Of a stretch of DNA of 64,000 nucleotides, positions 8,671-57,936 are shown one piece after another. The stretch is taken from positions 1,386 to 65,385 of the forward strand of contig DIRT01000018.1 in NCBI GenBank assembly GCA_002427605.1, in the 5' to 3' direction. The notes under the pieces were generated by a model. The model saw only the letters and a program-made list of their open reading frames with translations. It had not been told where the DNA came from and ran no database searches. The stretch comes from Bacteroidales bacterium UBA5429. GTDB taxonomy: Bacteria > Bacteroidota > Bacteroidia > Bacteroidales > WCHB1-69. Every line of letters begins with the position of its first letter. The first letter of the stretch is position 1. The position numbers were made by a program, and so were the translations under genes.

Positions 8671-8797
8671 TTTTTGGAAATAAAAAAATTAGGGGGCAGA
8701 GGGTTCACTACGCTGTAGATGTTTTTTCACCCCACTCGGAAACATTAAACGCTTTGGATATGCAGGATCAATTACGAATTACGAATTACGAATTACG
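8671..8797 (+). repeat. Dispersed G-run/C-run element, copy A, ending in (AATTACG)x4
   Basis: TTTGGAAATAAAAAAATTAGGGGGCAG...CACCCCACTCGGAAAC...GATCAATTACG repeats; homologous to copies B-F. Confidence 0.8.
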
Positions 8798-8825
8798 GAA
8801 TCGGGATTAATTAGAAACAAACGAC

Positions 8826-9791
8826 ATGAAAAGAGTTTTATTTATAGCAGCATTGATTCTTTCATCATTGAGTTTGTTGAGTCAAACTTATATGCCGTTT
8901 TTTGCGGATACCAATAAATATAATCTTGTTCATGCCATAACTTCTAAAAATGATCTGACGGGAGATCCTTTTACAGGCAGTATAGCGACTTATGTTTACA
9001 CTATTACAAAAACAAATCAACTTACTTTTAATGAAAAAACTTATTATGTGGTACAATCCAGCTATACTCCGGGATATTTGGATGATGAGGTTTTAATAGT
9101 AAGAGAGGATACCACAGGTAAAATTTTTCGTTATTATCCTTCCATTGAGGATGAGATTTTGATTTGTGATATGTCATTAAATCAGGGAGATACTTTTCAA
9201 TTACCTACTTTGGGAGAATGGACATCCATGGAGACTTATTATGTTGAAGAAGGCTATATACTTGTTGTTGATAGTGTAACTTATGAGGATGGAAGAAAAA
9301 TCATTCACTTTCCTGATATTGATTTTAGTATCGGGTTCTCTTTTTTTTATATCGGACTTTTTTCTGACTATAATGTTGGTTTGAAATTTATTGAAGGGAT
9401 AGGTCCGACTTATGGTCCATTCGGCTATATCACTATGTCGGAGAATTTTTTACCATTACTTCTTTGCTCCACTCAAAATGGGCAATTGGAATATATGCTT
9501 CATGATAGTCTGGGTTGCTATCAGGACAATCATGTTGGCATACCGGATGTAGAGAACATAAAATTCACTTTATATCCCAACCCTTCCGATGGATTCATAC
9601 ATCTCGATTTGGAGGAAAATTGCACAGATTATTATGTAGAGGTGTTTAATCTGTTGGGCGTTTCAGTCTATTCAACAACAATTTCCGAAAGCATGACCAT
9701 TGATTTGTCGAATAATCCTGCAGGAATCTATTTTTTGTCGCTCCGAAACAAAGAAGCGGTGTTAGGGGTTAAGAAGGTGATAATCAAGTGA
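8826..9791 (+). CDS. Secreted protein with T9SS C-terminal sorting domain
   Basis: Signal peptide; C-terminal LYPNPS...GIYFL...KKVIIK; IEGIG motif. Confidence 0.85.
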   Translation: MKRVLFIAALILSSLSLLSQTYMPFFADTNKYNLVHAITSKNDLTGDPFTGSIATYVYTITKTNQLTFNEKTYYVVQSSYTPGYLDDEVLIVREDTTGKIFRYYPSIEDEILICDMSLNQGDTFQLPTLGEWTSMETYYVEEGYILVVDSVTYEDGRKIIHFPDIDFSIGFSFFYIGLFSDYNVGLKFIEGIGPTYGPFGYITMSENFLPLLLCSTQNGQLEYMLHDSLGCYQDNHVGIPDVENIKFTLYPNPSDGFIHLDLEENCTDYYVEVFNLLGVSVYSTTISESMTIDLSNNPAGIYFLSLRNKEAVLGVKKVIIK

Positions 9792-10020
9792 TTTTTTCAA
9801 TTACGAATTACGGATTACGATTTTACAAGGTAGAAGGTAGAGGGTAGAAGGTAGAATGATTTTGTATTTATTTGAATATCAGAAAGATATGATAAATGGT
9901 TTTCAATTCTCAATTTTCAATACTTTTGCCTTCCGACTTTCGACTTTTTCTCATTCCGCTTTCCCCCTTCAACCTTCCGCCTTTAATTCTATCTTCTACC
10001 TTCTTATTTCTACCTTCAAA

Positions 10021-10125
10021 TAATGGGGGGCAGCATAGATTTTCCTCCTTTGTTATTTTAACTCCCCTCCTCGGGGAAGGAGGGGAGCCCGAAGGGCGGG
10101 GTGGTTATTCCCCACTCTGGAATGT
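10021..10125 (+). repeat. Dispersed element copy B, with a nested REP-like hairpin insert
   Basis: TAATGGGGGGCAG...TTTGTTATTTTA[insert 10061-10103]TTATTCCCCACTCTGGAATGT. Confidence 0.75.
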
Positions 10126-10144
10126 TGTTCCTTGTGGGAAAATG

Positions 10145-10240
10145 GTGGAACGGTTTTCAGGTTGGAGAAGTGGCTGATTTATAATTACTTACTTTTAATT
10201 TAGTACTAAACTTGCCATTTTGCCAAACTGCTTGTTGTGC
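10145..10240 (-). mobile_element. Solitary integron attC-like site
   Basis: Minus strand GCACAAC-AAGCAG-TTTGG-CAAAA-TGGC...GCCA-CTTCT-CCAA-C-CTG-AAAACC-GTT: an imperfect palindrome bounded by an AAC box and a GTT box, starting 2 nt after a TGA. Confidence 0.6.
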
Positions 10241-10242
10241 GG

Positions 10243-10329
10243 TCACCCTTTTTTATCGTCAATTATTTCTTTTACTTTTTCTTCTAACTGTCTCTGGTCA
10301 GGCAAATACAATTGATTATTAGATATTAT
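10243..10329 (-). pseudogene. C-terminal remnant resembling YhcG/DUF1016 PD-(D/E)xK nuclease
   Basis: My translation, IISNNQLYLPDQRQLEEKVKEIIDDKKG*, recalls the SKYQLYLP..EL tail of DUF1016; no start codon; abuts the attC-like site. Confidence 0.4.
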
Positions 10330-10437
10330 TTAAGGTTTCTTTTTCTTTACAAAGATTTTTTTGTAAATATAAGAACCTACTGCTCCACCTACCAAACCAG
10401 AAATTATTATGATAAGCATATCACATAAAGTTGCCAT
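10330..10437 (-). CDS. 35-aa single-TM small protein
   Basis: My translation: MATLCDMLIIIISGLVGGAVGSYIYKKIFVKKKKP*; hydrophobic GxxxG helix and basic tail; below the ORF-track size cutoff. Confidence 0.45.
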   Translation of the reverse strand: MATLCDMLIIIISGLVGGAVGSYIYKKIFVKKKKP

Positions 10438-10585
10438 AATTTTAAAATAATTTACTAATCCATTTACCTAATTTACCAACAACACCAGTAGAGCCAGTAA
10501 TTGCTCCTATAACAGCGGGTAGTGCATAAGTTCGATACTGTCAACTAGGGCAAGGAACTGTTTCATATCTTTGAATTCTTTTTTG

Positions 10586-10593
10586 CAAAGATA
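10586..10593 (-). promoter_or_regulatory. Bacteroidota primary-sigma -7 element (TATCTTTG)
   Basis: Matches the TAnnTTTG consensus; points toward the small ORFs. Confidence 0.55.
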
Positions 10594-10848
10594 TAATATG
10601 TATTTTTAATAATACAATATGTTTTCATTTTTGTATTCTCTAAAATACATTTTTCGGTTTATAAGTCTTTTAAGAAATCAGAAATATGAAATAGATCTAT
10701 TTAAAAATGTAAATACTTGATATTCAAATATTTCTAAATTCTAAACTCTAAATTCTAAATTTATTCATTCCGCCTTCCGCCTTCAACCTTCCGCCTTCGA
10801 GATAACCCCGAAGGGGTGGCATTATTACTAATACAATGTGTTTTGGTC

Positions 10849-11403
10849 TTAATCAGTTGGAATAAAACAACCTCCTTTGATGTTTGGTGAATGCACTATA
10901 CGTGTTTTTTCGTGTTTTTTGTCGATGAACACAGAATCACCATCGAAAAAAATTTCAACTAAAGAGTTCCAAGGTATCCTTATAGCAAAGTCTTCATTTT
11001 CAAAGTAATAAATGGTCATATAATAGGATTTATTGATCTCCAATTTATCATCGCAAGAGTCTGTTGCATATTCAGAAATAATTGTCCAATCCCAATTATC
11101 TAAGTGATCAGTTATTGCTATCAGATTGTACTTTTTATCGTTAAAATTTACGAAACTATCAATATTGAGTACTTTATATAATCTTTTTATCGAATCAATC
11201 TTAAGCGTAATAAAAGTATCTATTATTTCTTTCGTAGAATCATACAATGCAATTGCACGATCCGGATTATCTGCGTACAAATACCTATATTCCCGATATT
11301 CTTCTCCTATTTTCAAACTATCAACCGGTTCCTGGCAAAATAGATTTCCGCTCGTACTGATCATACACAAAATAGAGACTAAAAGTTTTATTAGATTTTT
11401 CAT
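10849..11403 (-). CDS. Hypothetical secreted protein
   Basis: Signal-peptide-like N-terminus; ATG lies 2 nt after the stop of the upstream gene; no family recognised. Confidence 0.75.
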   Translation of the reverse strand: MKNLIKLLVSILCMISTSGNLFCQEPVDSLKIGEEYREYRYLYADNPDRAIALYDSTKEIIDTFITLKIDSIKRLYKVLNIDSFVNFNDKKYNLIAITDHLDNWDWTIISEYATDSCDDKLEINKSYYMTIYYFENEDFAIRIPWNSLVEIFFDGDSVFIDKKHEKTRIVHSPNIKGGCFIPTD

Positions 11404-11405
11404 TT

Positions 11406-12041
11406 TCAATTACTTTTTATTGTGAGTGATCCATCTTCATTGATCAGATAGTAGAAGTAATCTCGTTCTGCTTTTAAATCCCCATAAGAATTTGTACTTC
11501 TAAATAGTGATATTTCTATATGTGATTCATCTATCTTACACAAAGTTTGTTTATAGATATCTTGTGGGTTATCTTCAATCGTTGGATCCTCAGTTACCAA
11601 GACTTGAGAAAAAACTTCCTTCCCGGAGGAATCTAAAACAGCATAAACAAGGGAACGACTCAGATCCCATGATCCCTTAATATAAAATAAGAGAACGAAA
11701 TTTGATGTTCCCGGCCTTTTAAATGCTCGTAATTTATTAATAGCATAAGAACTTCCAACAATATTCCCATCAACATAAACTAAGAATTTTGATAACTTTG
11801 AAATTGCAGATATGTTTACCAAAAAATTCATTTGTAATTCAAAGTTTGTTGGCTCCAGTTCATCCGTATTATCTCCATAATCCAGATCCGTACAATACAA
11901 CGGAAAATCTGTTCTACAATAAGGTTCTATTAATTGCAAAAATGTAGAATCATTTTCACTTCTTACTTCTTGATTATTAATTGAATGCACATTTTGTTGA
12001 ATGCAAAAAAATAATAAAATTGTCAATAGTTGATATTTCAT
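11406..12041 (-). CDS. Hypothetical secreted protein
   Basis: Signal peptide MKYQLLTILLFFC; 211-aa ORF in very AT-rich DNA; no family recognised. Confidence 0.75.
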   Translation of the reverse strand: MKYQLLTILLFFCIQQNVHSINNQEVRSENDSTFLQLIEPYCRTDFPLYCTDLDYGDNTDELEPTNFELQMNFLVNISAISKLSKFLVYVDGNIVGSSYAINKLRAFKRPGTSNFVLLFYIKGSWDLSRSLVYAVLDSSGKEVFSQVLVTEDPTIEDNPQDIYKQTLCKIDESHIEISLFRSTNSYGDLKAERDYFYYLINEDGSLTIKSN

Positions 12042-12194
12042 CTTATCTGTTGTTTTTGATTCATTTTTGTAAAAATATTCTATATTTTTAAAGGATTATG
12101 CATCGATAAAATATCTTTTCCATCTCGAACAAAGGATTTTAAACTCCAAATATAATTATCCTTAAATTCTAACCCCAAATGGGATTTGATACTG

Positions 12195-12202
12195 CAAAGA
12201 TA
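12195..12202 (-). promoter_or_regulatory. -7 element (TATCTTTG) for the two secreted-protein genes
   Basis: TAnnTTTG consensus on the minus strand. Confidence 0.55.
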
Positions 12203-12507
12203 ATAAAAAAGTCGAAAGTTTTTATTATAAATTGAAAATTGAAAGTTGAGAATTGAAAATGGTCAAACATCTATCGTATCTCATTGATATTCATATCAAT
12301 AGCCATGTCCTTTAGGGCATGGTTGGGAATTAACCCCCAAGATATCAAGGGCATTAGCCCAAATTTATTATAATGTTATCTCTATGGGGTTATTAAAAAG
12401 TCGAAAGTCGAAAGACGAAAGGCGAAAGTTTTTATTATAAATTGAGAATTGAAAATTGAGAATTGAAAATGGCATTTATCTTGCTGATATTCAAATAATT
12501 CAACTCT

Positions 12508-12620
12508 CGTAATTCGTAATTGATCACACATGTCCAAAAAGGTCAAACATTCTAGAGTGGGGTGATGGATTAACAAAAAAGACACCCCAAATCCTGCCCC
12601 CCATTTATTTTAAATTCCAA
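12508..12620 (-). repeat. Dispersed element copy C (inverted relative to A and B)
   Basis: 12554-12602 matches 46600-46648 at 48 of 49 positions; the left arm closely matches copy D. Confidence 0.9.
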
Positions 12621-12715
12621 ATAAGAAATATGAAGTAAGAAGTAATTTTGAAGTCGGAAGGCGGAGGGCGGAAGGCGGAATGAAAAAAATCCGAAATCCG
12701 AAATCCGAAATCTTT

Positions 12716-13525: not shown

Positions 13526-13565
13526 TGCAGTTTCCTAAAACGGCTGCAAAGGTACAAAAAAAGAT

Positions 13566-14150
13566 TTAATTTTTAGTTGCAGCGTGGTAACATTTCCGAC
13601 AAAGTGGTTCGTACGCTTCGGTTTCTCCCAGTAGAATCTGTTTATCGTTTTCAATAGTTCTGAAAGAGAAAGAAGCCAGGTTGCCGCATCGAACGCAGAT
13701 GGCATGCACTTTGGTAACATATTCGGCAATCGCCATCAGTCCGGGCATGGGTCCGAAGGGTCTGCCGAGAAAGTCCATATCAAGACCGGAGAGAATGACA
13801 CGAACTCCCTGATTCGCCAGGGTGCGACACACTTCAATGAGTCCATCATCAAAAAATTGAGCCTCATCAATACCTACGACATCCACATCTTCGCTGTTGA
13901 CATAGAGCAGAATTTCAGCGGAATTGACTACAGGTGTTGCCTCTTCTGCTTTTTTGTCGTGGGAAACCATCTCCGAATCCGCATAACGCGTATCGATACT
14001 GGGTTTAAAAAGTTCTACTTTTTGTTTTGCAAAACGAGCTCTTTTAATGCGTCGAATCAGCTCTTCCGTTTTTCCGGAAAACATGGAACCGGTGATTACT
14101 TCAATCCACCCTTGCTTTAGTTTTTTATCGGCTTTATTTTCAAGAAACAT
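13566..14150 (-). CDS. tdk: Thymidine kinase
   Basis: [29 protein letters not shown]...CRKC zinc site. Confidence 0.96.
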
Positions 14151-16615: not shown

Positions 16616-16638
16616 CACTAAAAATTAAGACAAGAAAG

Positions 16639-33368: not shown

Positions 33369-33452
33369 ATCTTATTCCCCTTTCGGTCATTGAGCGAAGT
33401 CGAAATGTCCGCCTTTTATTTCTATTTTTTACTTCTTATTTCATACTTCTTA

Positions 33453-33520
33453 TTTGGAATTTAAAATAATTGGGGGGCAGGATGTGTCTTCCTTTTTAGT
33501 TATCCTATTTCCCCACTCTC
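33453..33520 (+). repeat. Dispersed element copy D (solo, between convergent genes)
   Basis: TTTGGAATTTAAAATAATTGGGGGGCAGGAT...TTTTTAGTTATCCTATTTCCCCACTCTC; left half resembles C, right half resembles E. Confidence 0.85.
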
Positions 33521-33584
33521 CAATATGAAAGCTTATTATTTATATCGTGAACCTGACAGTACAATCTATCTCAAAAATCGTTTA

Positions 33585-36983: not shown

Positions 36984-37012
36984 ATTTCGGATTTCGGATT
37001 TCGGATTTCGGA
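36984..37012. repeat. (TTTCGGA)x4 heptamer array
   Basis: Read directly, next to the gldF -7 element. Confidence 0.85.
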
Positions 37013-39691: not shown

Positions 39692-40177
39692 ATGAAAAAA
39701 TGGATCATTATTCCTTTGCTTTTTATAGTTTTCTGTTCATTTCATATACAGCACGGTATGGTTAAAGTGTATCATAAAGATTCCCGCTACTCCTCCGATC
39801 AGATTTGCAACCTTCGGGACGGAAAAGTGTACAAAAAAAGTTCCTCATACTCTTCCGATATTGTTTGTCGGATCGAGGGCAATAAGATTTATAAAAACAA
39901 CTCGACATACAGCACCGATATCATCTATACCATAAAAGAAAACAAGGTTTATAGGGGCAACTCCACCTATTCCAGTGACCAGGTTTACACAATCAAGGAT
40001 GGCAAGGTGTACAAGGGAAACTCCACTTACAGCAGCGATCTTCTTTACACCATCAAGGACAACAAAGTGTACAAAGGCAACTCAACCTACAGCAGTGATT
40101 TGTATTTCAGCTACGATAACTACGTCACCATTGAAGAGTTTGTTGCTATTTTACATGTGGTGAGATATACTTTTTAG
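39692..40177 (+). CDS. Secreted protein with six 20-aa tandem repeats
   Basis: KVYKGNSTYSSDxxYTIKD/E repeats with 60-bp DNA periodicity; the -7 element overlaps the first ATG, so the second Met is preferred. Confidence 0.85.
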   Translation: MKKWIIIPLLFIVFCSFHIQHGMVKVYHKDSRYSSDQICNLRDGKVYKKSSSYSSDIVCRIEGNKIYKNNSTYSTDIIYTIKENKVYRGNSTYSSDQVYTIKDGKVYKGNSTYSSDLLYTIKDNKVYKGNSTYSSDLYFSYDNYVTIEEFVAILHVVRYTF

Positions 40178-40377
40178 ATTTTGGATAATTCGGTATACTT
40201 TTGTTTCAAATAATCATATTCCGATTGATAGCGTTTCAATCTGTCGAGGTCTTTTTGGGTGGGAGCAGATAGGCGTGTTAAGTCCATATTGTTCTGCAGA
40301 TCATACAATTTTACGGTTGTTGCCAGCAACTGTTCTCCTATGGCAGCGGCACTTATAAACACATTGTAGTTTGTCAT
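40174..40377 (-). CDS. Small hypothetical protein (67 aa)
   Basis: Follows prsW on the same strand; helical C-terminus; stop overlaps the convergent gene's stop by 4 nt. Confidence 0.5.
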   Translation of the reverse strand: MTNYNVFISAAAIGEQLLATTVKLYDLQNNMDLTRLSAPTQKDLDRLKRYQSEYDYLKQKYTELSKI

Positions 40378-42364: not shown

Positions 42365-42433
42365 CTAAAGTATAACTTTATTTTTACATGTATTTCTAAA
42401 GTTTGGCTTTATTTTTACATGTATTTCTAAAGT
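42365..42433. repeat. 31-bp direct tandem repeat (about 2.2 units) in the divergent promoter region
   Basis: CTAAAGT-nnnn-CTTTATTTTTACATGTATTT units start at 42365, 42396 and 42427. Confidence 0.85.
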
Positions 42434-42504
42434 ACTAACAGGTTGCGACCTGTCACTATTTGGATAAAAACTCATATCTTTGCAGATTATCAATTTTGTC
42501 ATTT

Positions 42505-43119: not shown

Positions 43120-43201
43120 AAAGTCGAAAGTCGAAAGTAAATTTAGGATTAACAATCTGACACTCAAATTCGCACTATTTCGGATTTTATTTTATTTTTT
43201 C

Positions 43202-43320
43202 TTTTGGAAATAAAAAAAAAGGGGGGCAGACAAGGCTTTCCTTTTTAGTTATTTTATTTCCCCACTCTGGAATGTAAACCTTTTTGAATATGAGTGATCA
43301 ATTACGAATTACGAATTACG
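43202..43320 (+). repeat. Dispersed element copy E, ending in (AATTACG)x3
   Basis: TTTTGGAAATA9GGGGGGCAG...TTTCCCCACTCTGGAATGTAAACCTTTTTG...GATCAATTACG. Confidence 0.88.
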
Positions 43321-43533
43321 TTTTGAACTGTCATGGAATCAATTCTATATCCTAATTTCTAAATTTACAATCATGTCACCCCTACGGGGTTATTGAAAAG
43401 TCGAAAGTTTTTGCTATAAATTGAAAATGGTTAAATATCTAATGTATTTCATTGATATTCAAATAATTCCGAAATCCGAAATCCGAAATTATGTTGATTT
43501 CGATTTCCGCCTTTTTTTACTCCCGAAATCTGT

Positions 43534-46413
43534 CTATCTCTTTCTCCTTTTCGGTTTCTCTTTCGTAAACAGATCCGCGGTATATTTTTCGTAAAGATCG
43601 AAAAGATAAACCATTCTGTTAGCTTCGCCGGTGAATGGTTGCGGACGATATGCCAAATCTACTGCTTTGTCCAGTTCGTTGTGTGCTTTAACCAATGCAG
43701 GAGGCATCGTCAAAGGATCGTAAAGGTCTGCCAAAGTGCTGTTTGGAAATTCCAGACGAGTATCTAAAACCTTTTGCGCTGCTTCTTCTATGGCTTTTAT
43801 TTGCTTTTCGGTTGGATTTTCAGGCCAAGGATAATTTGTATAAACTATTTCGTTTGAATATCTTAATCTACTTTCTAATCTTCCACAAACTGACTTTACC
43901 CAAGCCATATGCATTGTTGACATTAATATACCAAAATGAAAAAGACCACCATTGGGAATTATATGGCAACTATTATTTGCAATATCATCTTTTCCAAAAA
44001 ATCCCATCGGAATATACTTTCTGTTTTCAGAAGTCGTACTTGGAATTAAAACATAATCACTTTCGGGATGTCTGTCTTCGCCAAATAAGGTTGGAAAAGC
44101 TGCAAGTTTTTGTGTTGTTTGTCTTGAGCTTTTAGCTCTTAATTTTCTTACATTTTCGATTCGTTCTGTAATAAATTTTGCATTTTTTAATTCACTTGGA
44201 TCAGCATTTTTAAGCCATAAACACCAACGTTTGCGACCATTTAGAAATTCGTATGCCGAAATAAGGGGTTTAAAAAATTTTTCTGAGATTGGTTCTTTTG
44301 TTACAAACTCCTTTTTTTCTTCGTCTGTAAACAAAAAATTGCCGCCATCATTGGGCATACTTCCAAATGACATTTCAGGCACGTTGCAAATAGGTTTTTT
44401 GCGTTTATCAATAAAAATGTCCTTTGTATCAACTAAGTAAGGATTGATATTCTTAACTTTTATTTCGTGTGCTTCTCCTCTAATATCTTCATACTCAAAA
44501 ATGCTCTTGTTGTTGGTATCATAATTAGCGAAACCAATTATGATACAATAAACTGCTGCATTTCCTTTAGCTTCATTAATCCATTTAAAAGTACGATGAG
44601 CAAAATGAATTTTGATATTGTAATAATTGAATAACAAGTTCCATAAAATACCCACTTGTTCTCCCTGAGTAATAGAATTGGTGGAAACAAAAGCAACTTT
44701 GGTTGGAGTGTTTGCAATGAGTTGAGCAGCTTTCATATACCATGCAGCTACGTAATCCAGTACACCGAAACCTTTTACTCCCGAAAATACTCGTTGCATA
44801 TCCAACTTTTGCTCCATGTTTTGCTCTTTCTTACCCACGAAAGGAGGATTGCCGAGAACATAATCGAAATGGATTTTTCCTGAAAAAGTTTTAGGATAAG
44901 TCCCCTCGAAAATCTGCACTTTTTTACTGAAAATATTTACGGTATCGTATTGAACTTCAGGCTCATTGACCATAATTATATTGGTAGTATTGGCTTTTAT
45001 ATCAACTTCCGCATTTTTAGTCAGTGCCGACCAATCCATTTGAAGTGCATTTCCTACTGTTATATGTGCCGATTTATTCAATGGTAAACGAGCGTAATAT
45101 TGTCCAAACTCATGGCTAATCCGCATATTCATCTGGTGATCAATCAGCCACATCGCTACTTCGGCAATTCGTGCAGGAAACTCTTCGTACTCAATACCGT
45201 AAAATTGATCAACATCAATAAGAATAATGCTACTGATATCAAGCACTCGTTGTCCGGATTTGTACAACTCCCGTAAAACTTCTAATTCCAGCAATCGCAA
45301 TTCCCGATAGGTGATTACCAGGAAGTTACCGCATCCGCAGGCTGGGTCAAGAAATTTAAGCGTGCTTAACTTTTTATGAAATTCTGTAAGTCTGTTTTTA
45401 TTGCCTTTGATATTTTCAAACTCTTTCCAAAGATCATCCAGGAAAAGTGGTTTGATCAGTTTTAAGATATTGGTTTCGCTTGTATAGTGTGCTCCAAGAT
45501 TTCTGCGTTCCTTCGGATTCATTACACTTTGGAACATGGACCCAAAAATAGCAGGGGAAATCTTACTCCAGTCGATGTGGGTACAATTCAAAAGAGCCTG
45601 ACGCATTTTGCTGTCGAAACTTGCCGTGGGCAGAATCTCTTCAAACAACTTTCCGTTAACATACGGAAATTCAGCCAATTGCTCATCCAGATTTTTAAAT
45701 CTTTGCTCTTTTGGCGTGTTGAGCACCTGAAAAAGTTCTTGCAGTTTCGCTGCCAGGTCACTCCCGTCAACATGGGTACGATGTTCGATATATTCCTGAA
45801 ACTGTTGTTTCTCAAAAATGGTGGTATCTTCAGCAAACAGACAGAAAAGCAAACGCACCAAATAGACTTCCAAAGGGTGTCCGGTATAGCCAATCTCTTT
45901 CAGTCTGTCGTGCAGTTTCCCCATTAACTCGGCTGCTTCTATATTCGCCGGATCCTCTTCTTTGTAAACCTTTTTTTGATAGCCCAATAAGTATCCGAAA
46001 TGCTGAACGTTGTTGATCAAGTCGTTTAGTTTGAACTCTACAAGAGATTCATCTTCAAGGTCATAAAGACGAAAGTTTTCAAAATCGGATACCAGAATAT
46101 ATTTCGGCAATTCATGTTGTTCAAGACCATGAGTGTACTCAATCGCCTGTTGATATGCTCTATCCAGGTTTTTCCCGCGACTTTTCATTTCAATCAAAAT
46201 CGTACCCTTCCAAAGCATGTCGATATAGCCATCTGAGTCGTCCAGCTTTTTAACTCTATGTTCAAAAGTACCAACCCTTTTCCTGCTGATACCAAACACA
46301 TTAAAAAACTCCACCAAAAACGGCTTCGCATCCGCCTCTTCACTCGCGGCATCCGCCCACTCCTTCGAAAACTTCAGCGCCCTATCCTTTATCTCATTCC
46401 AGCTTAATGGCAT
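43534..46413 (-). CDS. MmeI-like type IIL restriction-modification enzyme (endonuclease + N6-adenine MTase + TRD)
   Basis: MPLSWNEI start, YID...IEMKSRG, GAHYTSE, DPACGCGNF (motif I), GNPPF (motif IV), C-terminal LADLYDP..MP. Confidence 0.93.
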   Translation of the reverse strand: MPLSWNEIKDRALKFSKEWADAASEEADAKPFLVEFFNVFGISRKRVGTFEHRVKKLDDSDGYIDMLWKGTILIEMKSRGKNLDRAYQQAIEYTHGLEQHELPKYILVSDFENFRLYDLEDESLVEFKLNDLINNVQHFGYLLGYQKKVYKEEDPANIEAAELMGKLHDRLKEIGYTGHPLEVYLVRLLFCLFAEDTTIFEKQQFQEYIEHRTHVDGSDLAAKLQELFQVLNTPKEQRFKNLDEQLAEFPYVNGKLFEEILPTASFDSKMRQALLNCTHIDWSKISPAIFGSMFQSVMNPKERRNLGAHYTSETNILKLIKPLFLDDLWKEFENIKGNKNRLTEFHKKLSTLKFLDPACGCGNFLVITYRELRLLELEVLRELYKSGQRVLDISSIILIDVDQFYGIEYEEFPARIAEVAMWLIDHQMNMRISHEFGQYYARLPLNKSAHITVGNALQMDWSALTKNAEVDIKANTTNIIMVNEPEVQYDTVNIFSKKVQIFEGTYPKTFSGKIHFDYVLGNPPFVGKKEQNMEQKLDMQRVFSGVKGFGVLDYVAAWYMKAAQLIANTPTKVAFVSTNSITQGEQVGILWNLLFNYYNIKIHFAHRTFKWINEAKGNAAVYCIIIGFANYDTNNKSIFEYEDIRGEAHEIKVKNINPYLVDTKDIFIDKRKKPICNVPEMSFGSMPNDGGNFLFTDEEKKEFVTKEPISEKFFKPLISAYEFLNGRKRWCLWLKNADPSELKNAKFITERIENVRKLRAKSSRQTTQKLAAFPTLFGEDRHPESDYVLIPSTTSENRKYIPMGFFGKDDIANNSCHIIPNGGLFHFGILMSTMHMAWVKSVCGRLESRLRYSNEIVYTNYPWPENPTEKQIKAIEEAAQKVLDTRLEFPNSTLADLYDPLTMPPALVKAHNELDKAVDLAYRPQPFTGEANRMVYLFDLYEKYTADLFTKEKPKRRKR

Positions 46414-46548
46414 AATTTAATTTTGTAATTCAAGCTACAAATGTACAACAAAAACCTTAATTAGGATTAATAGGATTAAAAGATTTTAGGATTAAAAAAA
46501 GGCGGAAAGCGGAAGTCGAAAGTCGAAAGTTTTTTCATTTCTAAGTCC

Positions 46549-46670
46549 CGTAATTTGTAATTCGTAATTCGTGTCATTTTCTAAAAGGTATTATATTCCA
46601 GAGTGGGGTGATGGATTAACAAAAAAGACACCTCAAATCCTGCCCCCCTTTTATTTTTATTTCCAAAAAA
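46549..46670 (-). repeat. Dispersed element copy F (inverted relative to E)
   Basis: Near-identical core to copy C; immediately downstream of the murG stop. Confidence 0.9.
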
Positions 46671-46675
46671 AGAGT

Positions 46676-48995: not shown

Positions 48996-50192
48996 ATGAA
49001 CATTTTAGTATTAAATTGTGGAAGCTCATCAATCAAATATCAATTGATTTCTATGAATGACACCACTGAGTTGAAGGCAAAAGGCTTGGTTGAACGTATT
49101 GGTTTAGAGGTAGGAGAGTTTACTCATCGCCCTACCGGTAAAGATAAATATTCAGTTCAAACTCCAATTAAGGATCACAGCGTTGGAATTAAGTTGGTTT
49201 TGGACGCGTTGGTAGATCCTCAACATGGCGTTTTGTCATCCATTGATCAGATTAATGCGGTAGGACATCGTGTTGCTCATGGTGGTGAGTACTTCAAAAA
49301 GAGTGCTTTGATTGATAAGGAAGCGTTGGAATATATTAGAAAATGTTCAGAATTGGCTCCTATACATAATCCTGCTAATTTAATGGGTATCGAGGTGATG
49401 CAAAAGATGTTGCCTAACGTGAAACAAGTTGCAGTATTTGATACCTCTTTCCACCAAACTATGCCACCTGAAGCATTCTTGTACGCTATTCCTTATAAAT
49501 ACTATGAAGAAAATAAGGTTAGACGCTACGGATTCCATGGAACCAGTCACAAATTTGTAGCTCCTAAAGCAGCACAGATTTTAGGTAAGAAATATGAAGA
49601 TCTTAAAATTATCGTTTGTCACTTAGGAAACGGAGCTTCCATATGCGCTATCAAAAATGGTGAATCTGTAGACACATCTATGGGCTTTACTCCGGTTGAA
49701 GGATTGGTGATGGGTACCAGAGCTGGTGATCTAGACTCAGGAGCATTGCTTTATATCGCTGAAAAAGAGGGGTTGGACTATAAAGGAATGAACAAACTGG
49801 TAAACAAAGAATCCGGATTACTTGGAATTACAGGGAAAAGTTCCGATATGAGAGATATCAATGACGGTGTTGAAGCGGGTGACAAGCGCAGTATTTACGC
49901 TCATAAAGCATTCTGTTATAGAGTGAAAAAATATATCGGAGCTTACGCTGCCGCCATGGATGGTGTTGATTTGATCATATTAACCGGTGGAATTGGAGAA
50001 AATGCAATAGAACAAAGAGAAGAGATTTTGAAAGATCTCAAGTTCTTTGGTGTTGATTTTGATCCGGTTGCTAACCAAACCAGAGGAAAAGATGCAGTGA
50101 TTACCAAACCCGGAAGCAAAACCACAGTGATGGTTGTTACCACCGACGAAGAATTGGTGATTGCAACAGATACTTATAACCTTACAAAGTAA
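48996..50192 (+). CDS. ackA: Acetate kinase
   Basis: LNCGSSSIK, GHRVAHGG, RRYGFHGTSH, HLGNGAS, TGGIGEN, TDEE. Confidence 0.96.
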   Translation: MNILVLNCGSSSIKYQLISMNDTTELKAKGLVERIGLEVGEFTHRPTGKDKYSVQTPIKDHSVGIKLVLDALVDPQHGVLSSIDQINAVGHRVAHGGEYFKKSALIDKEALEYIRKCSELAPIHNPANLMGIEVMQKMLPNVKQVAVFDTSFHQTMPPEAFLYAIPYKYYEENKVRRYGFHGTSHKFVAPKAAQILGKKYEDLKIIVCHLGNGASICAIKNGESVDTSMGFTPVEGLVMGTRAGDLDSGALLYIAEKEGLDYKGMNKLVNKESGLLGITGKSSDMRDINDGVEAGDKRSIYAHKAFCYRVKKYIGAYAAAMDGVDLIILTGGIGENAIEQREEILKDLKFFGVDFDPVANQTRGKDAVITKPGSKTTVMVVTTDEELVIATDTYNLTK

Positions 50193-50321
50193 GGTTAGAG
50201 GTCATTGTAAAGCAATAACTTTTTGAGCAAAGCGAAGAAAACTTATAGAAACTATTCAATACGATACCGCTATCATTTATCTTTTTTTGTAAGTTTGTGA
50301 TTTATTTATTCAGAGAATTTT

Positions 50322-51140
50322 ATGGCAAAAGGGAGAATACTACAAGTAAAAGAATCCGAAATAACGGTTATTAGTCAGCAGAATACCGATTATATCAGTC
50401 TTACGGATATGACCGTTAATTTTCGAGAAGGTAGCGGACTGATAGGCAAATGGATAACCAACAAAAACACGATAGAATATCTCGGCGTTTGGGAGAGAGT
50501 AAATAATCCCGATTTTAATTACCCCGAATTCGGGGTAATTGGACAGGAAGCGGGTACGAACAGATTTATGATGTCAGTTGGTCAATGGATTGAAAGGACG
50601 AAAGCCGTTGGAATGCTCGTAAAAGCCGGGAGATACGGTGGAACTTATGCACATAAAGATATCGCATTTCACTTTGCAATGTGGTTGAGTCCCGAATTTC
50701 AAATCTACTTGGTTAATGAGTTTCAACGTCTTAAAGACGAAGAGAATAACCGTTTGAAATTAGAGTGGAATTTGCAACGGACTCTTGCTAAAATAAACTA
50801 CCAAATTCACACCGACGCAATCAAGGAAAACCTTATTCCACAAGAAATCACAAAACAGCAAGCTAATATTGTTTATGCCAACGAAGCCGATTTGCTAAAT
50901 GTTGCTCTTTTTGGAATTACAGCGAAAGAATGGCGAGATAGCAACCCCGATAAGGCGGGAAACATAAGAGATTATGCCACTTTAGAACAGCTTGTTGTGT
51001 AGAGCAATATGGAGAGCGTAAATGCATTGTTAATTCAACAAGGTTTATCACAAAGTGAAAGACTTCTACAACTCAATAAAGTAGCTATTACACAAATGAA
51101 ATCGCTACTTGCAAGCAGCACAATGAAAAAGCTGAAATAG
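50322..51140 (+). pseudogene. KilA-N domain protein interrupted by an in-frame TAG at 51000-51002
   Basis: DYISLTDM, GRYGGTYAH; past the TAG the frame continues as SNMESVNALLIQQGLSQSERLLQLNKVAITQMKSLL, the expected family C-terminus, to a TAG at 51140. Confidence 0.8.
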
Positions 51141-51183
51141 GAAAACAACGAACTGCTATAAGTCAAGTCATATTCCTTTGTGA

Positions 51184-51891: not shown

Positions 51892-51923
51892 CAAGTTATG
51901 TTGTGATCAGAATCTTAAAAAGT

Positions 51924-53057: not shown

Positions 53058-53085
53058 TATAGAAAAACAACCCACTCCGGGGGCG

Positions 53086-53724
53086 ATGACCGCTCAGACT
53101 GTGACTGCTGTGCCTCAGCAATCGACCCGTTCTTTTGTGGCACCGACAGGTGTTCCGATTAAAAAGACAGTTCCTATTTCCGATCTTTTGGAAAAAGAAA
53201 TAAAGGGGGGAAGCGAAACTATCGCTCCACCCGTGGAAACAGCAAAAGAAGAACAAGCTGTCTCACTCGCTACTGCCGAGCCACAGATAACCGAGGGGGG
53301 TGACTCAGATACCGAAGAGAAAGAAATATGCTGCCCCCCAAATATTGAAGATCCAAAAGAAGAAAAAAAAAACTTAACCTTTGCAGAGCATTGGAAGATC
53401 ATTTTTGCACAAGTTTTCGAAAAAATACCCCTTATTTTACACCCTTTGGATGGGTATATTCCTGAAATTAAGGATAATATAATTACCGTAAAATTAAAAA
53501 ACGATTTTCAGAAAGATTATTTTGGGCCGGAAATCAGGCATCTGCTGAGTTATTTGAGAAACCAATATGATGACCGGATTGAGGATATCCAATTGGTGGT
53601 GGATGAGTCGGTAGAAACGAAAAAAATCATTTATGATTTGGTTGACAAAATGGATGATTTGAAAAAGGAAAACCCTGAGTTTGAGAACTTTATATCTATT
53701 TTGAAATTGCACGCTAACGATTAA
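53086..53724 (+). CDS. Probable DnaX (tau) linker and C-terminal region, in the +1 frame
   Basis: P/E/T-rich linker, then a folded domain ending K..DL..ENP...L.L as in Bacteroidota DnaX; frame open from 53026. Confidence 0.65.
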   Translation: MTAQTVTAVPQQSTRSFVAPTGVPIKKTVPISDLLEKEIKGGSETIAPPVETAKEEQAVSLATAEPQITEGGDSDTEEKEICCPPNIEDPKEEKKNLTFAEHWKIIFAQVFEKIPLILHPLDGYIPEIKDNIITVKLKNDFQKDYFGPEIRHLLSYLRNQYDDRIEDIQLVVDESVETKKIIYDLVDKMDDLKKENPEFENFISILKLHAND

Positions 53725-53728
53725 AACG

Positions 53729-55627
53729 ATGAAAAAATTAGGATTAATTCTATGCTTATTCTGCTTATTGTCAGGACTTAATGCGCAAGTATTTGAAATT
53801 CAAGGGAAAGAATTGCATCGCGCAATTCCGGATGCTACAGTGGATAGTGTTTGGAGTGGGATCGGGTTGCCCTGGGGAATGACCGGAAAAGATATCATCA
53901 TCGGCTTTACTGACTGGGGATTTGACTACACGCATCCTGTTTTTTATGATACCTCCATGACTCGTTACCGGGTGTTGAGAGCCTGGGATCAGTTCAAAAA
54001 AGAGGGTCCTACGCCTGCCGGGTTTGATTATGGGCGGGAATATGTTGGCGAAGCTCAGTTGCTGGCTGCTCAGTGTGATACTTTTAATGTGTATCAATAT
54101 GCTTATCATGGTACGCATGTAGCTTCTATTGCAGCCGGAGCAGGAGCCGGAACGATTTACAGGGGAGTGGCTTACGAAGCGGATCTGCTGTTTGCTACTT
54201 TTTTGGTGGATGAACAGGCAGTGGTGGATGCGTTTCAGTGGATGTACAATGTAGCTCAACAGGAGGGAAAACGATTGGTGATCAATATGAGTTGGGGATT
54301 ATATTATATTGACAATTATACCGGAACCGGGAAAATCGGTCAAAAAATGGAGGAGTTGTCGCAATTGGGCGTTGTGTTTGTGACCAGTGCGGGGAATAAT
54401 GGGGATGTGAACTTCCATATCGATCAGGATTTTGATAGTGACAATGGGATTGATACTTTGCGGACTATTGTTCATTTTGCGGGAGGTTCTTCCTACCAAT
54501 ATGGACAATCGATTACGATGACCAATTCACCTAATACCACTTTTTCTTTTGCATTGCAATTGTTAACCAATACCTATCAACCTCTGATCATGACTCCTTT
54601 TTATAATACCGCAGATAGTTCAGGCTATTTTGAGTCCTATATGGTGTATGAAACGGATACGATTCATTACACGGTGGAGATTGATCAGGAGGATTTGAAT
54701 AATCATCGTCCCGAGGTTAGAGTGAGAGTTAAGAAACCGCAATCTATTTACAGAATCGGACTTCATGTAACAGCACCATCGGGTTATTTTCATGCCTGGA
54801 ATGTGATAGAACTGACTAATGATGTAGGTAATTGGGGTGGCTCATTTGTAGGACCATCTTCATTACCGGGGTGGAAATCAGGGAATCCTCACTTCGGATT
54901 GGGAGCACCGGCCAATGTTGAGTGTGCTATTGCAGTGGCAGCACATAAGTCGAAAGTAGTGACACCAAACTATATTATCGGGGGTGAGATTGCTTCTTTT
55001 TCCAGCTATGGACCTACTATTGATTATCAAACCAAGCCGGAGATTTCAGCTCCCGGAAATAATATTGTGGCAGCATTGTCCAGTTATACTAACACTTATA
55101 CCGGGTCTTATGTAAGAAAAATAGAGTTTCAGGGTAGAGAGTATCAATTTGTGTCGCTATCCGGAACCTCTATGGCTTCCCCATTAGCGGCCGGAGTAGT
55201 GGCGTTGATGTTGGAAGCTAACCGTTGGCTTACTCCAGAGCAAGTGAAAGAGGTGTTGACTGAGACAGCGCGTAACGATGAATTTACTGCTGAAAGCGGT
55301 GTGGAGCGTTTTGGTTATGGAAAAGTAGATGCCTATCATGCAGTTTTAGCAGCTGTGGATTTGGTGGGAGTACAGGAAAATGAAATTCAACAATTCAGCA
55401 GTTATTTGTTCCCAAATCCTTCAGATGGCACACTTTTTGTTGGTATAGAGTCAGAGGAATCAGGTGCATTGATGGAAGTTTTTAGCCTGGAAGGAAAAAG
55501 AGTTTTTGTTCAATCTTTGGTTTCTGGATTGCAACAGTTGAATCTGACAGAACTTCCTGCAGGATGCTATTTAATAAAACTCACTGCACAAAATAGACAT
55601 GAAATCCATAAATGGATTAAATTTTAA
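53729..55627 (+). CDS. S8 subtilisin-like serine protease with T9SS C-terminal domain
   Basis: DWGFD, HGTHVA, SAGN, SGTSMASP; LFPNPS...GCYLIK. Confidence 0.92.
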   Translation: MKKLGLILCLFCLLSGLNAQVFEIQGKELHRAIPDATVDSVWSGIGLPWGMTGKDIIIGFTDWGFDYTHPVFYDTSMTRYRVLRAWDQFKKEGPTPAGFDYGREYVGEAQLLAAQCDTFNVYQYAYHGTHVASIAAGAGAGTIYRGVAYEADLLFATFLVDEQAVVDAFQWMYNVAQQEGKRLVINMSWGLYYIDNYTGTGKIGQKMEELSQLGVVFVTSAGNNGDVNFHIDQDFDSDNGIDTLRTIVHFAGGSSYQYGQSITMTNSPNTTFSFALQLLTNTYQPLIMTPFYNTADSSGYFESYMVYETDTIHYTVEIDQEDLNNHRPEVRVRVKKPQSIYRIGLHVTAPSGYFHAWNVIELTNDVGNWGGSFVGPSSLPGWKSGNPHFGLGAPANVECAIAVAAHKSKVVTPNYIIGGEIASFSSYGPTIDYQTKPEISAPGNNIVAALSSYTNTYTGSYVRKIEFQGREYQFVSLSGTSMASPLAAGVVALMLEANRWLTPEQVKEVLTETARNDEFTAESGVERFGYGKVDAYHAVLAAVDLVGVQENEIQQFSSYLFPNPSDGTLFVGIESEESGALMEVFSLEGKRVFVQSLVSGLQQLNLTELPAGCYLIKLTAQNRHEIHKWIKF

Positions 55628-55658
55628 TTAAAAATTAATTAAATTCGGACAAAAAGAT

Positions 55659-57899
55659 ATGATGAATACTTATATTCCTAATGAACGATTAGAGAAGGTT
55701 ACTATCTTAAAGAAGTACAGAGTGTTGAGGAGTTCTTTGAAAGATACAACGTCTGAAGAGAGTAAAAAGTTGTTTCGCAAAGCTTTTAGCCTGGCTGTTG
55801 ATGCGCATAAGGATATGAGGAGAAAGAGTGGAGAACCATACGTATATCATCCTATTGCTGTTGCAGAGATTGTTGCTAAAGAGATCAAATTGGGGACCAC
55901 CTCCATGATTGCTGCTTTATTGCATGATGTGGTTGAAGACACAGATTATACGATCGAAGATATTCGCGATATGTTTGGTGAAGAGGTAGCCAATATCGTG
56001 TATGGTTTGACCAAGATTGATGATATTGTGATGGATGAAAATCAATCCATACAAGCTGAAAATTTCAGAAAAATCTTGCTTTACACTGTGGACGATATTC
56101 GTGTTATTTTGATTAAGTTGGCTGACCGACTACACAACATGAGAACACTCAGTTCCATGATTCCGGAGAAGCAGTGGAAGATCTCTTCTGAAACACAATA
56201 TTTCTTTGTTCCGATAGCACACCGCCTGGGGTTATATTCCATTAAGAGTGAGTTGGAAGATTTGGCGATGAAATATAATGACCCGATTACTTATGCTAAT
56301 ATTTCTCATCGATTAAAATCAAGCTATAGTTTACGTCAAAACTTAATTGAGGATTTTACAAAACCGATTATTGAAAAACTCGAACAAGCCGGGATTGAGG
56401 CGGAGATGACCAGTCGTGAAAAGTCGATTTATTCCATCTATCAGAAAATGAAACGCAAAAATATCGATTTTGATGATATTTACGACATTTTTGCAGTTCG
56501 GTTTGTATTTGACTCTCCTCCGGAACTGGAAAAAGATATTTGCTGGAGGATCCATACGATTATTACCAGTTTATATAAGACTAATGAAAGTCGTGAAAGA
56601 AACTATTTGACTAATCCTAAAGCAAACGGCTACCAATCGCTGCACGTTACTGCGATGAGTAATGCCGGTAAGTGGATTGAGGTACAGATTCGTTCCAAGA
56701 GAATGGATGAGATTGCTGAGAGAGGGTTTGCTGCGCATTATAGATATAAAGAGGAGAATAGAACACCTGTCGAGTACGAAAACAGAGTAGAGGATTGGTT
56801 GGAAAGAGTGCGGGAAATGCTTAAAAGTGAGGATACCAATGCGCTTGAGTTCTTGAATGAAGTCAAGATGAATCTGGACTTGAAAGAGGTCGTGATTTTT
56901 ACCCCCAAGGGAGACAGAAAACTGCTTCCCAAAGGAGGTACGGTTCTTGACTTTGCATATACACTCCATACCACTATCGGAGATCAATGTATTGGCGCCA
57001 AGGTGAATTATAATATAGTATCCATTGAGCATGTATTGCAAAGCGGAGATCAGGTAGAGGTAATTACCTCCAAGAAGCAGTTTCCTAAAACAGAATGGCT
57101 TTCGATTGTCAAAACGGCACATGCGCGTGAGAATATCAAAGATGCGATCAGATCAGAACAAAAAAAGCAGGTTAGTGCCGGGAAAGAGCAACTCAGACAG
57201 ATTTTTTCCGAGTTGGATATCCCGTACAGTAAGGATAATATCGGAAGGATTCAGGCGGACACACGAATCGCTTCTGTTGCTGAGTTTTGGAGCCATATCG
57301 CTCAAGGAGTGATCTCTTTCGATAGAATTAAAAGTATTTTTAAGGGCAAAGGGGAATATAGGGATGTCCAAAAAAAGATTGCAGAAGGGTTGAAAGAGAA
57401 ATCGTTGGATAAATTGATATATGAACAATTGGAAGAGAAGCCTGAAGTGTTCTTTTTGGACGAAACATCGGATAGTATCAGGCATATTATTGCCGGTTGT
57501 TGTAGTCCGCTTCCGGGTGATCAAATAGTTGGTTTTCAGATATCTAACGAGCTGATCGAAGTGCATATGACAAACTGTCCCAAGGCGATTGAACAGATGT
57601 CTAAATTTGGGAACAGGATTATTAAAGCGAAGTGGTATAATGATCAGGATATTGGATTCCTTTCCGGGTTAAGTCTGACCGGTTTTGACCGTAAGGGGAT
57701 TATTAAAGAGATTGTAGATATTGTTACCCAGCAGTTGGATTTGAATATCAGAACGATCGAAATGTCTTCCAAAAATGACATATTCACAGGCAAGCTGATT
57801 TTATACATCAAAAATGTTAAGGCGCTGAATGAATTAATTGAAAAATTATTAACGATTGAGCAAATAGAGCAAATCGAACGTATTGCGCCCGGAGTTTAA
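55659..57899 (+). CDS. spoT: Long RSH (p)ppGpp synthetase/hydrolase
   Basis: ALLHDVVED (HD domain), KLADRLHN, YQSLH, EVQIR, FTPKG (TGS), C-terminal ACT domain. Confidence 0.93.
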   Translation: MMNTYIPNERLEKVTILKKYRVLRSSLKDTTSEESKKLFRKAFSLAVDAHKDMRRKSGEPYVYHPIAVAEIVAKEIKLGTTSMIAALLHDVVEDTDYTIEDIRDMFGEEVANIVYGLTKIDDIVMDENQSIQAENFRKILLYTVDDIRVILIKLADRLHNMRTLSSMIPEKQWKISSETQYFFVPIAHRLGLYSIKSELEDLAMKYNDPITYANISHRLKSSYSLRQNLIEDFTKPIIEKLEQAGIEAEMTSREKSIYSIYQKMKRKNIDFDDIYDIFAVRFVFDSPPELEKDICWRIHTIITSLYKTNESRERNYLTNPKANGYQSLHVTAMSNAGKWIEVQIRSKRMDEIAERGFAAHYRYKEENRTPVEYENRVEDWLERVREMLKSEDTNALEFLNEVKMNLDLKEVVIFTPKGDRKLLPKGGTVLDFAYTLHTTIGDQCIGAKVNYNIVSIEHVLQSGDQVEVITSKKQFPKTEWLSIVKTAHARENIKDAIRSEQKKQVSAGKEQLRQIFSELDIPYSKDNIGRIQADTRIASVAEFWSHIAQGVISFDRIKSIFKGKGEYRDVQKKIAEGLKEKSLDKLIYEQLEEKPEVFFLDETSDSIRHIIAGCCSPLPGDQIVGFQISNELIEVHMTNCPKAIEQMSKFGNRIIKAKWYNDQDIGFLSGLSLTGFDRKGIIKEIVDIVTQQLDLNIRTIEMSSKNDIFTGKLILYIKNVKALNELIEKLLTIEQIEQIERIAPGV

Positions 57900-57907
57900 G
57901 GTTGTTC

Positions 57908-57936
57908 TTTTTTTGAAAAAAATAAAAAAGGGGGGA
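57908..57936 (+). repeat. Partial (left-arm) copy G of the dispersed element
   Basis: TTTTTTTGAAAAAAATAAAAAAGGGGGGA directly after the RSH stop; low complexity. Confidence 0.35.

Follow-up and report, generated by a model that had tools for sequence, protein, structure and literature searches.

A two-box intergenic repeat family at the borders of mosaic and accessory DNA in two sister species of uncultured Bacteroidota

Results

Six copies of a two-box element in the window

The window, a stretch of 64,000 nucleotides (nt) of Bacteroidales bacterium UBA5429 (contig DIRT01000018.1), carries six full copies (A to F) of a non-coding repeat, the two-box element, which lie in gaps beside genes such as cdaA, alkA and murG (Table 1). 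All six had been listed in an initial annotation made from the sequence alone, and all were confirmed here as members of a family that is much larger than the window suggests. The family is non-autonomous and is restricted to two sister species of uncultured Bacteroidota from biogas reactors. We determined its architecture, copy number, taxonomic restriction and orientation rules, the allele states of the cargo between copies, and the conservation of its boxes. On this basis, we lean towards reading it as a lineage-specific non-coding repeat, similar to repetitive extragenic palindromes (REP) and bacterial interspersed mosaic elements (BIME) or to neisserial intergenic mosaic elements (NIME), which marks mosaic boundaries and serves as passive portable homology.

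Each unit is about 100 nt long and consists, in order, of a left arm, a G-box, a spacer, a C-box and a right arm. The left arm is T/A-rich (for example, TTATTTGGAAATAAAAATAAAA) and grades outward into arrays of TTCNNNN heptamers. The G-box is GGGGGCAG (GGGGG(G)CAG in the six window copies), the C-box is CCCCACTC, and 27-32 nt lie between the boxes; the length from box to box is 44 nt in 110 copies, 45 nt in 31, 43 nt in 14 and 46 nt in one. The commonest form of the right arm is TGGAAT...ACCTTTT...GATCAATTACG-heptamers, and several alternative right-hand modules exist. In an alignment of 40 copies, both boxes are fixed throughout, as are a single A of the left arm and, in the middle of the spacer, a single C that precedes a T-run. 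In the consensus, TTTGGAAAT-A-rich-G-box at the left end is not the reverse complement of C-box-TCTGGAAT at the right end, except for GGGG/CCCC. The two-box pattern was not matched in any of 100 shuffles of the sequence, against four to five matches observed in the window. Several likenesses between copies noticed earlier also hold: the cores of C and F differ by one base, the right half of D matches E, and the continuation into ACCTTTT..GATCAATTACG is seen in four copies, namely A (as aaacgctttggatatgcaggatcaattacg), C, E and F.

Table 1 Two-box copies and associated features (window coordinates; strain-level contigs for the island alleles)
Feature	Position or contigs	Strand	Description	Method
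Copy A	8659..8759	+	G-box at 8692, C-box to 8737; right arm leads into (AATTACG)4	nhmmer
Copy B	9990..10139	+	core split ahead of the C-box by a GC-rich hairpin nested in it, CTCCCCTCCTCGGGGAAGGAGGGGAGCCCGAAGGGCGGGGTGG	nhmmer
Copy C	12534..12640	-	inverted partner of B; left arm toward cdaA	nhmmer
Copy D	33435..33534	+	solo, between convergent genes, conserved context	nhmmer
Copy E	43187..43287	+	left arm faces alkA, C-box side faces the restriction-modification (R-M) gene	nhmmer
Copy F	46580..46675	-	pairs with E in inverted orientation; left arm faces murG	nhmmer
Partial item	57903..57946	+	left-arm-like A-run and G-run with GGGGGGAAGG, no CAG, no C-box; 18.6 bits, model positions 13-56	nhmmer
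Island B-C	9858..12657		bounded by B (+) and C (-); orphan secreted open reading frames (ORFs) 10849-11409 and 11406-12041, heptamer arrays, hairpin modules	
Island allele "empty"	L198, L201, L204 (about 2 nt); L203 (31 nt)		replaces 2800 nt (9858-12657); B and C both absent	
Island allele "cargo-1"	L199		B', about 1 kb of different ORFs, then C	
Island allele "cargo-2"	L200, L202		as window	
MmeI-family R-M gene	43534..46413	-	cargo between E and F; all five MmeI domains	Pfam

The initial annotation had also counted a partial copy at 57908, which in our profile search is probably not a member of the family. In addition, the profile gave matches of 31-37 bits inside two coding genes (2872-2949 in a GH73-LysM gene and 53287-53373 in the A-run region of dnaX); these are look-alikes made of an A-run and a G-run, not members. 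The module nested in copy B (CTCCCCTCCTC..GGAGGGG..CCCGAAGGGCGGGGTGG, window 10068-10110) recurs just before the C-box at two further places in the same genome (C1:56850-56940 and C44:857-949), and it is also present elsewhere in mosaics of the sister species.

The heptamer arrays consist of 3-5 tandem units each (Tandem Repeats Finder) and can all be written as TTCNNNN on one strand, with the types TTCGTAA, TTCGGAT, TTCGACT, TTCAATT, TTCCGCC, TTCTACC, TTCTAAA and TTCTTAT. In the window, they were found at 8770-8797, 9799-10017, 10732-10798, 12229-12712 and 36984-37012, and further at 43120-43138, 43300-43320, 43468-43489 and 46505-46572. They recur in set orders, e.g. (AATTACG)n-TTTTAC-(AAGGTAG)n-AATTAAA-(GGCGGAA)n, and make up the outer part of the left arm.

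Copy number, genomic spread and taxonomic range

The genome that holds the window (G000; 2.11 Mb in 44 contigs, 37.6% GC, 98% complete) contains 154 perfect copies of GGGGGCAG-N27-32-CCCCACTC, and the reversed-pattern control gave none. A nhmmer profile built from the copies returned 237 matches, 164 of which exceeded 45 bits (about 0.8% of the genome), and the family comprises approximately 165-180 copies. A single box mismatch was found in just 13 copies, and the spacers differ by a median of 13/30 (43%). Nearly all copies are intergenic when genes are called from long ORFs (91% coding). With the same gene calls, about 158 gaps are longer than 300 nt and about 120 gaps hold a copy, so that the family and its attached mosaics form most of the long non-coding DNA of the genome. 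Many contigs terminate in a copy, which indicates that the repeat breaks the assembly.

Among 152 genomes from 22 genera of the same family, the element was present in two, G000 and a sister species of the same genus (G005). The latter has 131 perfect copies, and its nucleotide identity to G000 is about 90% in syntenic DNA. A search of viral contigs in IMG/VR gave one chance match only, in a GC-rich phage contig, and the bare two-box pattern over the genome collection gave, among the matches listed, mostly chance matches in GC-rich genomes. One copy lies on a 10-kb contig from another genus (G007:C74), in the order of a flank 97% identical to G000 (C12:42012-43304), the two-box copy, and a type III-like R-M or defence operon not found in G000, which faces the C-box side of the copy. 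Mis-binning or recent transfer probably accounts for this contig, which therefore does not count as independent evidence.

Orientation relative to genes and to partner copies

A strong regularity concerns neighbouring copies. All 19 neighbour pairs at most 700 nt apart are +/- pairs with the left arms outward and the C-boxes face to face (19/19), and most pairs in G005 show the same head-to-head arrangement. Tight pairs enclose GTAG-type REP hairpins, heptamers and other short modules, and variable DNA is located on the C-box side of the copies. The enclosed hairpins include a separate family with a GTAG head, GTAGAGAC-GCAAYGCATTGC / AGGGCATGCCCT-GTCTCTAC (G000 C1:31900-31960, C18:19640-19680 and others), which, judged from its sequence, looks like the true, classical REP of this genome.

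Relative to genes, copies are enriched in convergent gaps, with 47 copies for 204 background gaps versus 75 copies for 1233 co-directional gaps. The co-directional copies are divided into 31 sense and 44 antisense (the background of 1233 gaps covers both classes together), and divergent gaps hold 21 copies for 210 background gaps. For solo copies (n = 103), the left-arm side is the side nearer a gene in 69 cases (p = 7e-4), and the C-box side points toward a gene 3' end in 64 and toward a 5' end in 39 (p ~0.02, estimated by normal approximation). Their strand is the same as that of the upstream gene in 54 cases and opposite in 49. This result, together with the sense and antisense counts, overturns the earlier proposal that the element always reads in sense with an adjacent transcript: with orientation random genome-wide and only C and F informative in the window, the sense pattern seen there was a small-sample accident.

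Fixed boxes and exchanged spacers at orthologous loci

For comparison of orthologous loci, about 424 kb of contiguous DNA and 40 short loci were sampled from G005. Among 22 orthologous pairs, the spacer matched at 29/30 or better in nine and at 17-24/30 in about ten, the latter no better than between unrelated members of the family (median distance 13/30). In these last pairs, the left arm still matched at 32-40/40. Homology between orthologues often ended directly past the C-box, with another right-hand module beyond. Both situations occur in the window: the orthologue of copy D has a spacer matching at 29/30, and that of copy A has kept arms and boxes with only 21/35 of the spacer matching (copy A scored equally in eight strain-level contigs). 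Over the family, the modules assort independently, since mutual information decays with distance and the left and right arms are uncoupled. Diversification of the spacer by an A-specific process, as in diversity-generating retroelements, was considered and rejected, as the spacer differences are not base-specific.

The boxes behaved differently from the spacers. In an unbiased test, in which loci were picked by their upstream flank in contiguous G005 DNA and not by the presence of boxes there, both boxes were perfect in G005 at 11 of 12 loci that hold a perfect copy in G000, with 0 changes in 176 nt; the twelfth locus was copy F, at which the left arm on the murG side was kept and the core behind it was replaced. 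Over the 22 pairs, identity in the upstream flank and left arm is 83-86%, from which about 13-26 box changes would be expected, and by our own arithmetic the Poisson probability of observing zero is < 1e-5. The boxes are thus under constraint where they stand. In close strains, retrieved via identical neighbour proteins, the cores were identical in 3 + 3 samples, which places spacer replacement on the scale of species divergence and not of strains.

The spacer type of copy F (GATTTGGGGTGTC...AATCCATCA) is found toward alkA in G005 (C40:106158-106203) and, inverted, toward murG in the window (46601-46647). Inversion of the interior by recombination between an inverted pair would produce this placement, and the observation hints at such an event.

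These data bear on the idea that the family is a decaying relic of an ancient burst of a MITE (miniature inverted-repeat transposable element), with no present role and with its regularities arising as by-products of the places where insertion was tolerated. Such a relic would be in keeping with the absence of an autonomous partner in the genome, the limitation to two sister species, the strictly intergenic location with enrichment in convergent gaps, and the stability of cores among close strains. It does not explain why no box changed at orthologous loci while the adjoining arms and flanks diverged by about 15%, why perfect copies outnumber those with one mismatch by 154 to 13 while spacers differ by 43%, or why the head-to-head rule holds in 19/19 pairs; moreover, the units have no terminal inverted repeats and no target duplications. 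We therefore consider a relic very unlikely.

Tests for RNA structure and transcription termination

The G-run and C-run are invariant and able to pair, and some left arms come near to the Bacteroidota -7 box when read as sequence, both of which could fit a small structured RNA gene or a cis-regulatory RNA; a structured RNA had been suggested earlier. Rfam gave 0 matches at the gathering score over the whole window, and a permissive scan around two copies gave chance-level matches only (<=21 bits versus cut-offs of 40-127), so the earlier statement that the element matches no known Rfam family holds. Mutual information in the core was confined to neighbouring columns, with no Watson-Crick signal. 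The only pairing returned by RNAalifold was four invariant G-C pairs around a loop of about 34 nt, and its covariation term was 0. The folding energy of spacers equalled that of shuffled spacers on both strands (z ~0), and five window copies folded on both strands (ten folds) gave z values from -1.4 to +1.4 with inconsistent structures. The proposed inner GGAT/ATCC helix finds neither covariation in the spacer nor excess folding energy, and an alternative stem of the A-run/G-run with the mid-spacer C/T-run was rejected because it was not better than slid or shuffled controls. The family thus shows no sign of a folded RNA; as its orientation is also random relative to genes, the RNA explanation is largely refuted and in our view extremely improbable.

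A different role at the transcript level is that of an outward-facing transcription insulator or terminator. The reverse strand of each unit reads GAGUGGGG...CUGCCCCCC and then runs into the complement of the left arm, which is U-rich. Under this view, transcripts of the mosaic or cargo would be halted by paired copies before they reach the flanking genes, and the host would keep the boxes for that purpose. In favour of this explanation, the pair rule places both U-rich arms outward, the C-box side of solo copies tends toward gene 3' ends, and convergent gaps are enriched in copies. Constrained boxes at orthologous loci also fit, and in copies D and E a simple terminator scan detected hairpin-plus-T sites. 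The hairpin preceding the U-rich tract on the reverse strand is, however, limited to the four conserved G-C pairs around the ~34-nt loop and has no excess stability, as neither strand folds better than shuffled spacers and the alternative stem is no better than its controls. In addition, the unpaired but conserved CAG and ACTC and the set spacing are left unexplained, 18 solo copies lie in divergent gaps, where a terminator is not needed, and the co-directional bias is weak (31 vs 21). An insulator or terminator is the best-fitting of the active alternatives, and we regard it as unlikely.

Accessory DNA between inverted copies

Two inverted pairs in the window, B-C and E-F, bracket accessory DNA. 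Neither of the two island ORFs between B and C belongs to a Pfam family. The island was compared in eight strain-level contigs whose flanks are 99% identical, and three allele states were found (Table 1). The cross-overs between cargo-1 and cargo-2 lie inside the spacer of B and in the right arm of C, and copy B of the cargo-1 strain is without the nested insert and has a different spacer. Empty and filled alleles meet within heptamer arrays, at (AAGGTAG)n|(GAAGGCG)n, at a distance of 55-170 nt outward from the boxes, and the junction shows no target duplication.

The MmeI-family R-M gene lies between E and F. In G005, the alkA-murG gap has no R-M gene, and 913 nt, with + and - copies about 450 nt apart, replace 3542 nt. 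A homologue of the R-M gene is present in G005 at another locus (C18:29026-32195), again between a + and a - copy, and the counterpart of this site in G000 (C17:16410/16750) is an "empty" pair. The genes of the two species are 89-94% identical outside the recognition domain, and their homology stops 110-260 nt short of the copies. Window positions 43936-44429 (approximately residues 661-826, Pfam MmeI_TRD) are not alignable with the G005 homologue, which suggests, as far as sequence can tell, that the target-recognition domain was swapped and that the two enzymes may differ in specificity. A look-up by the exact murG protein retrieved a single long contig with the sequence of the window, besides short contigs that stop at the repeat, whereas the exact alkA protein had no record. 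G005 further has a Fic-RhuM-SWIM-protease set between a copy pair.

In sampled synteny between G000 and G005, we found 18 insertions or deletions (indels) of at least 500 nt, of which 8 have a copy at a border and 10 have no copy nearby; as a baseline, about 7% of gaps hold a copy. The earlier view that the element borders accessory DNA and acts as a landing site is therefore supported in part: the B-C island, the E-F R-M gene and the 8 indels agree with it, whereas the 10 indels without a copy and the conserved contexts of A and D do not.

Several other segments of variable DNA were seen in the window. A segment of 990 nt with a KilA-N domain gene (50192-51182; gene 50322-51002) is absent in G005 with a 1-nt junction, has no copy near it, and also appears to be missing in one strain contig (L207). 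The gaps 40175-40341 and 42402-42466 contain G005 insertions of 4.1 kb and 8.0 kb, and neither has a two-box copy at its border. At 58428-63577, about 5.1 kb stand against about 1.6 kb of unrelated DNA in G005, a replaced segment whose left edge is about 480 nt downstream of the partial item at 57903-57946, beyond a small gene (58084-58317).

Search for candidate machinery

The bracketed cargo could be the work of a dedicated cassette-exchange or transposition system, in which an enzyme acting in trans on the boxes, as duplex or as single-strand hairpin, moves DNA between inverted sites, in the manner of pdif modules, composite MITE pairs or foldback elements. Inverted pairs around accessory and defence genes (the MmeI R-M gene, the Fic-RhuM-SWIM set, and the type III-like R-M operon of the G007 contig), the bracketing of the same R-M gene at different loci in two species, the presence or absence of the whole B-cargo-C unit among strains, and the invariant boxes at fixed spacing would all be expected of such a system.

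Nevertheless, no candidate enzyme was found in G000. The Y1_Tnp domain (PF01797), which is that of the REP-associated tyrosine transposases (RAYT), has 0 matches in G000; it is present in five congeners, four of which are element-free, and the Y1_Tnp/RAYT loci of relatives that we retrieved (L152-L157) contain no two-box pattern. The only tyrosine recombinases of G000 are two Xer-like proteins that are common to all congeners, including the element-free ones, and the two-box unit has no XerC-6-XerD (pdif) architecture. The boxes, as read from their sequence, do not fit the RYYYAAC/GTTRRRY motifs of attC sites either. Multicopy DNA of at least 400 nt resembling insertion sequences (IS) was not found in G000 beyond paralogous genes and tandem duplications (G005 was partly sampled), and a 1.5-kb repeat beside copies on contig C15, considered as a transposase, is a paralogous secreted-protein gene. 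Left and right arms showed no covariation that would be a trace of target duplication, and we found no solo copy with a clean empty/filled site, two candidate sites being whole-gap replacements. The distance of the island junction and of the R-M homology breaks from the boxes, the 10 of 18 indels without copies, and the identical cores of close strains also speak against a dedicated system, which we consider decidedly unlikely.

Discussion

According to the explanation that we prefer, a lineage-specific repeat with passive portable homology, the two-box unit would act at the DNA level as a boundary module of intergenic mosaics composed of heptamer arrays, GTAG-type REP hairpins and short modules. 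Its left arm is directed outward to the flanking gene and its C-box side inward to variable DNA, and copies that share a gap face each other. The approximately 165 nearly identical boxes and arms may be used by host recombination as portable homology, with general recombination rather than a dedicated enzyme running the exchange. Such homology would lead to spacer swaps, to the exchange of right-hand modules, to the replacement or loss of segments between inverted pairs, whether these contain genes or not, and to the presence of one R-M gene at different bracketed loci in two species. The boxes would be kept because something recognises them, possibly a DNA-binding protein or the factor that once spread the element.

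Several points weigh against this explanation. First, the route by which the family reached about 165 copies is unexplained, and neither a target-site duplication nor a clean solo empty/filled site was found. Second, passive homology leaves the 16 invariant box positions and the 27-32-nt spacing unexplained; gene conversion alone is insufficient, since roughly half of the loci escaped conversion and would retain mutations. Third, the link with indels is confounded, as most long gaps hold a copy (by our ORF-based gene calls, about 120 of the approximately 158 that exceed 300 nt). Finally, exchange is slow and proceeds on the scale of species divergence, as spacers were identical in the 3 + 3 close strains.

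The constraint on boxes and spacing is not accounted for by passive homology and points to a factor that recognises them. A bolder proposal is that the boxes are the recognition site of a lineage factor and that this site bounds exchangeable intergenic "slots", either through recombination of gene cassettes between two inward-facing sites, without the signature of an integron, an IS or a Xer system, or as an insulator kept by the host that would shield neighbouring genes from the slots. We consider this proposal quite unlikely. If true, it would represent an undescribed organisation of accessory DNA in Bacteroidota.

New results of this analysis are the head-to-head rule for neighbouring pairs, the location of variable DNA on the C-box side, inverted pairs around swappable cargo (the alleles of the B-C island among strains and the R-M gene at different loci in the two species), and the conservation of boxes with replacement of spacers. 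A single 100-nt unit in about 165 copies edges most of the long non-coding gaps of a small genome whose host is abundant in biogas reactors, and accessory genes, defence genes among them, that vary from strain to strain and between species lie bracketed by it. With 16 bases and their spacing strictly conserved and the surroundings freely replaced, the family offers a case for how repeats shape the residence of accessory DNA and how repeats themselves are maintained. As the repeats break short-read assemblies, differences in gene content at such sites can be easily missed or mis-binned.

Comparison with known systems

The defining features of REP-RAYT systems, MITEs and attC sites are not all present in the two-box element. 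The REP/REPIN-RAYT systems of Enterobacteria and Pseudomonas served as reference (PMC2817692). The two-box family resembles REP and BIME in having more than 100 extragenic copies, inverted or alternating in mosaic clusters, in being lineage-specific and in being enriched at gene 3' ends; the high-copy, extragenic character with inverted pairs and mosaic clusters is evident from the 164 strong matches and the 19/19 inverted pairs. Unlike them, it has no stable palindrome of 20-40 nt, no GTAG head and no cognate RAYT in G000. The known role of BIMEs is protein binding at the DNA level. None of the traits of MITEs, namely terminal inverted repeats, target duplication with clean sites, and, in G000, a related autonomous IS, was found. 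Integron attC sites also differ, because two-box sites bracket cargo in inverted and not direct orientation and G000 has only the two Xer-like tyrosine recombinases.

In pdif modules of Acinetobacter plasmids, 28-bp XerC-6-XerD sites in inverted orientation bracket gene cargo, including defence or toxin-type genes. The likeness lies in inverted short sites around discrete cargo and in the same cargo in different contexts; the two-box unit, however, is without the XerC-6-XerD layout, and nothing ties it to the two Xer-like recombinases of G000. Abundant intergenic heptanucleotide arrays of unknown function have been described, such as the cyanobacterial short tandemly repeated repetitive (STRR) sequences and TAACTGA in Beggiatoaceae, Cyanobacteria and a few Bacteroidetes (PMC4679880). 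The left arm is similar to these in its TTCNNNN arrays of 3-5 units, whereas the reported arrays stand alone and a joined two-box core is not described there (PMC4679880).

Further parallels exist among mosaic intergenic repeats. The NIME of Neisseria are RS units flanked by dRS3 repeats and are tied to rearrangement, strain-variable inserts and recombinational exchange; the dRS3 repeat is 20 bp long and is a target of phage or transposase. Correia elements carry terminal inverted repeats of 26 bp together with a duplication of TA. In both, as in the two-box family, short conserved repeats frame variable intergenic segments, but the sequences are unrelated, and the two-box unit has asymmetric boxes 27-32 nt apart with neither terminal inverted repeats nor duplication. 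The BOX element of Streptococcus pneumoniae (boxA-boxB(n)-boxC) is a modular, non-autonomous repeat of about 100 copies whose route of spread is unknown. It shares with the two-box family the conserved end modules, the variable middle and the intergenic location; BOX folds stably and varies by the number of its middle modules, whereas the middle of the two-box unit is of fixed length and replaceable, with no stable fold detected. Taken together, these comparisons place the two-box element best among lineage-specific intergenic repeats of the REP/BIME, NIME and BOX kinds.

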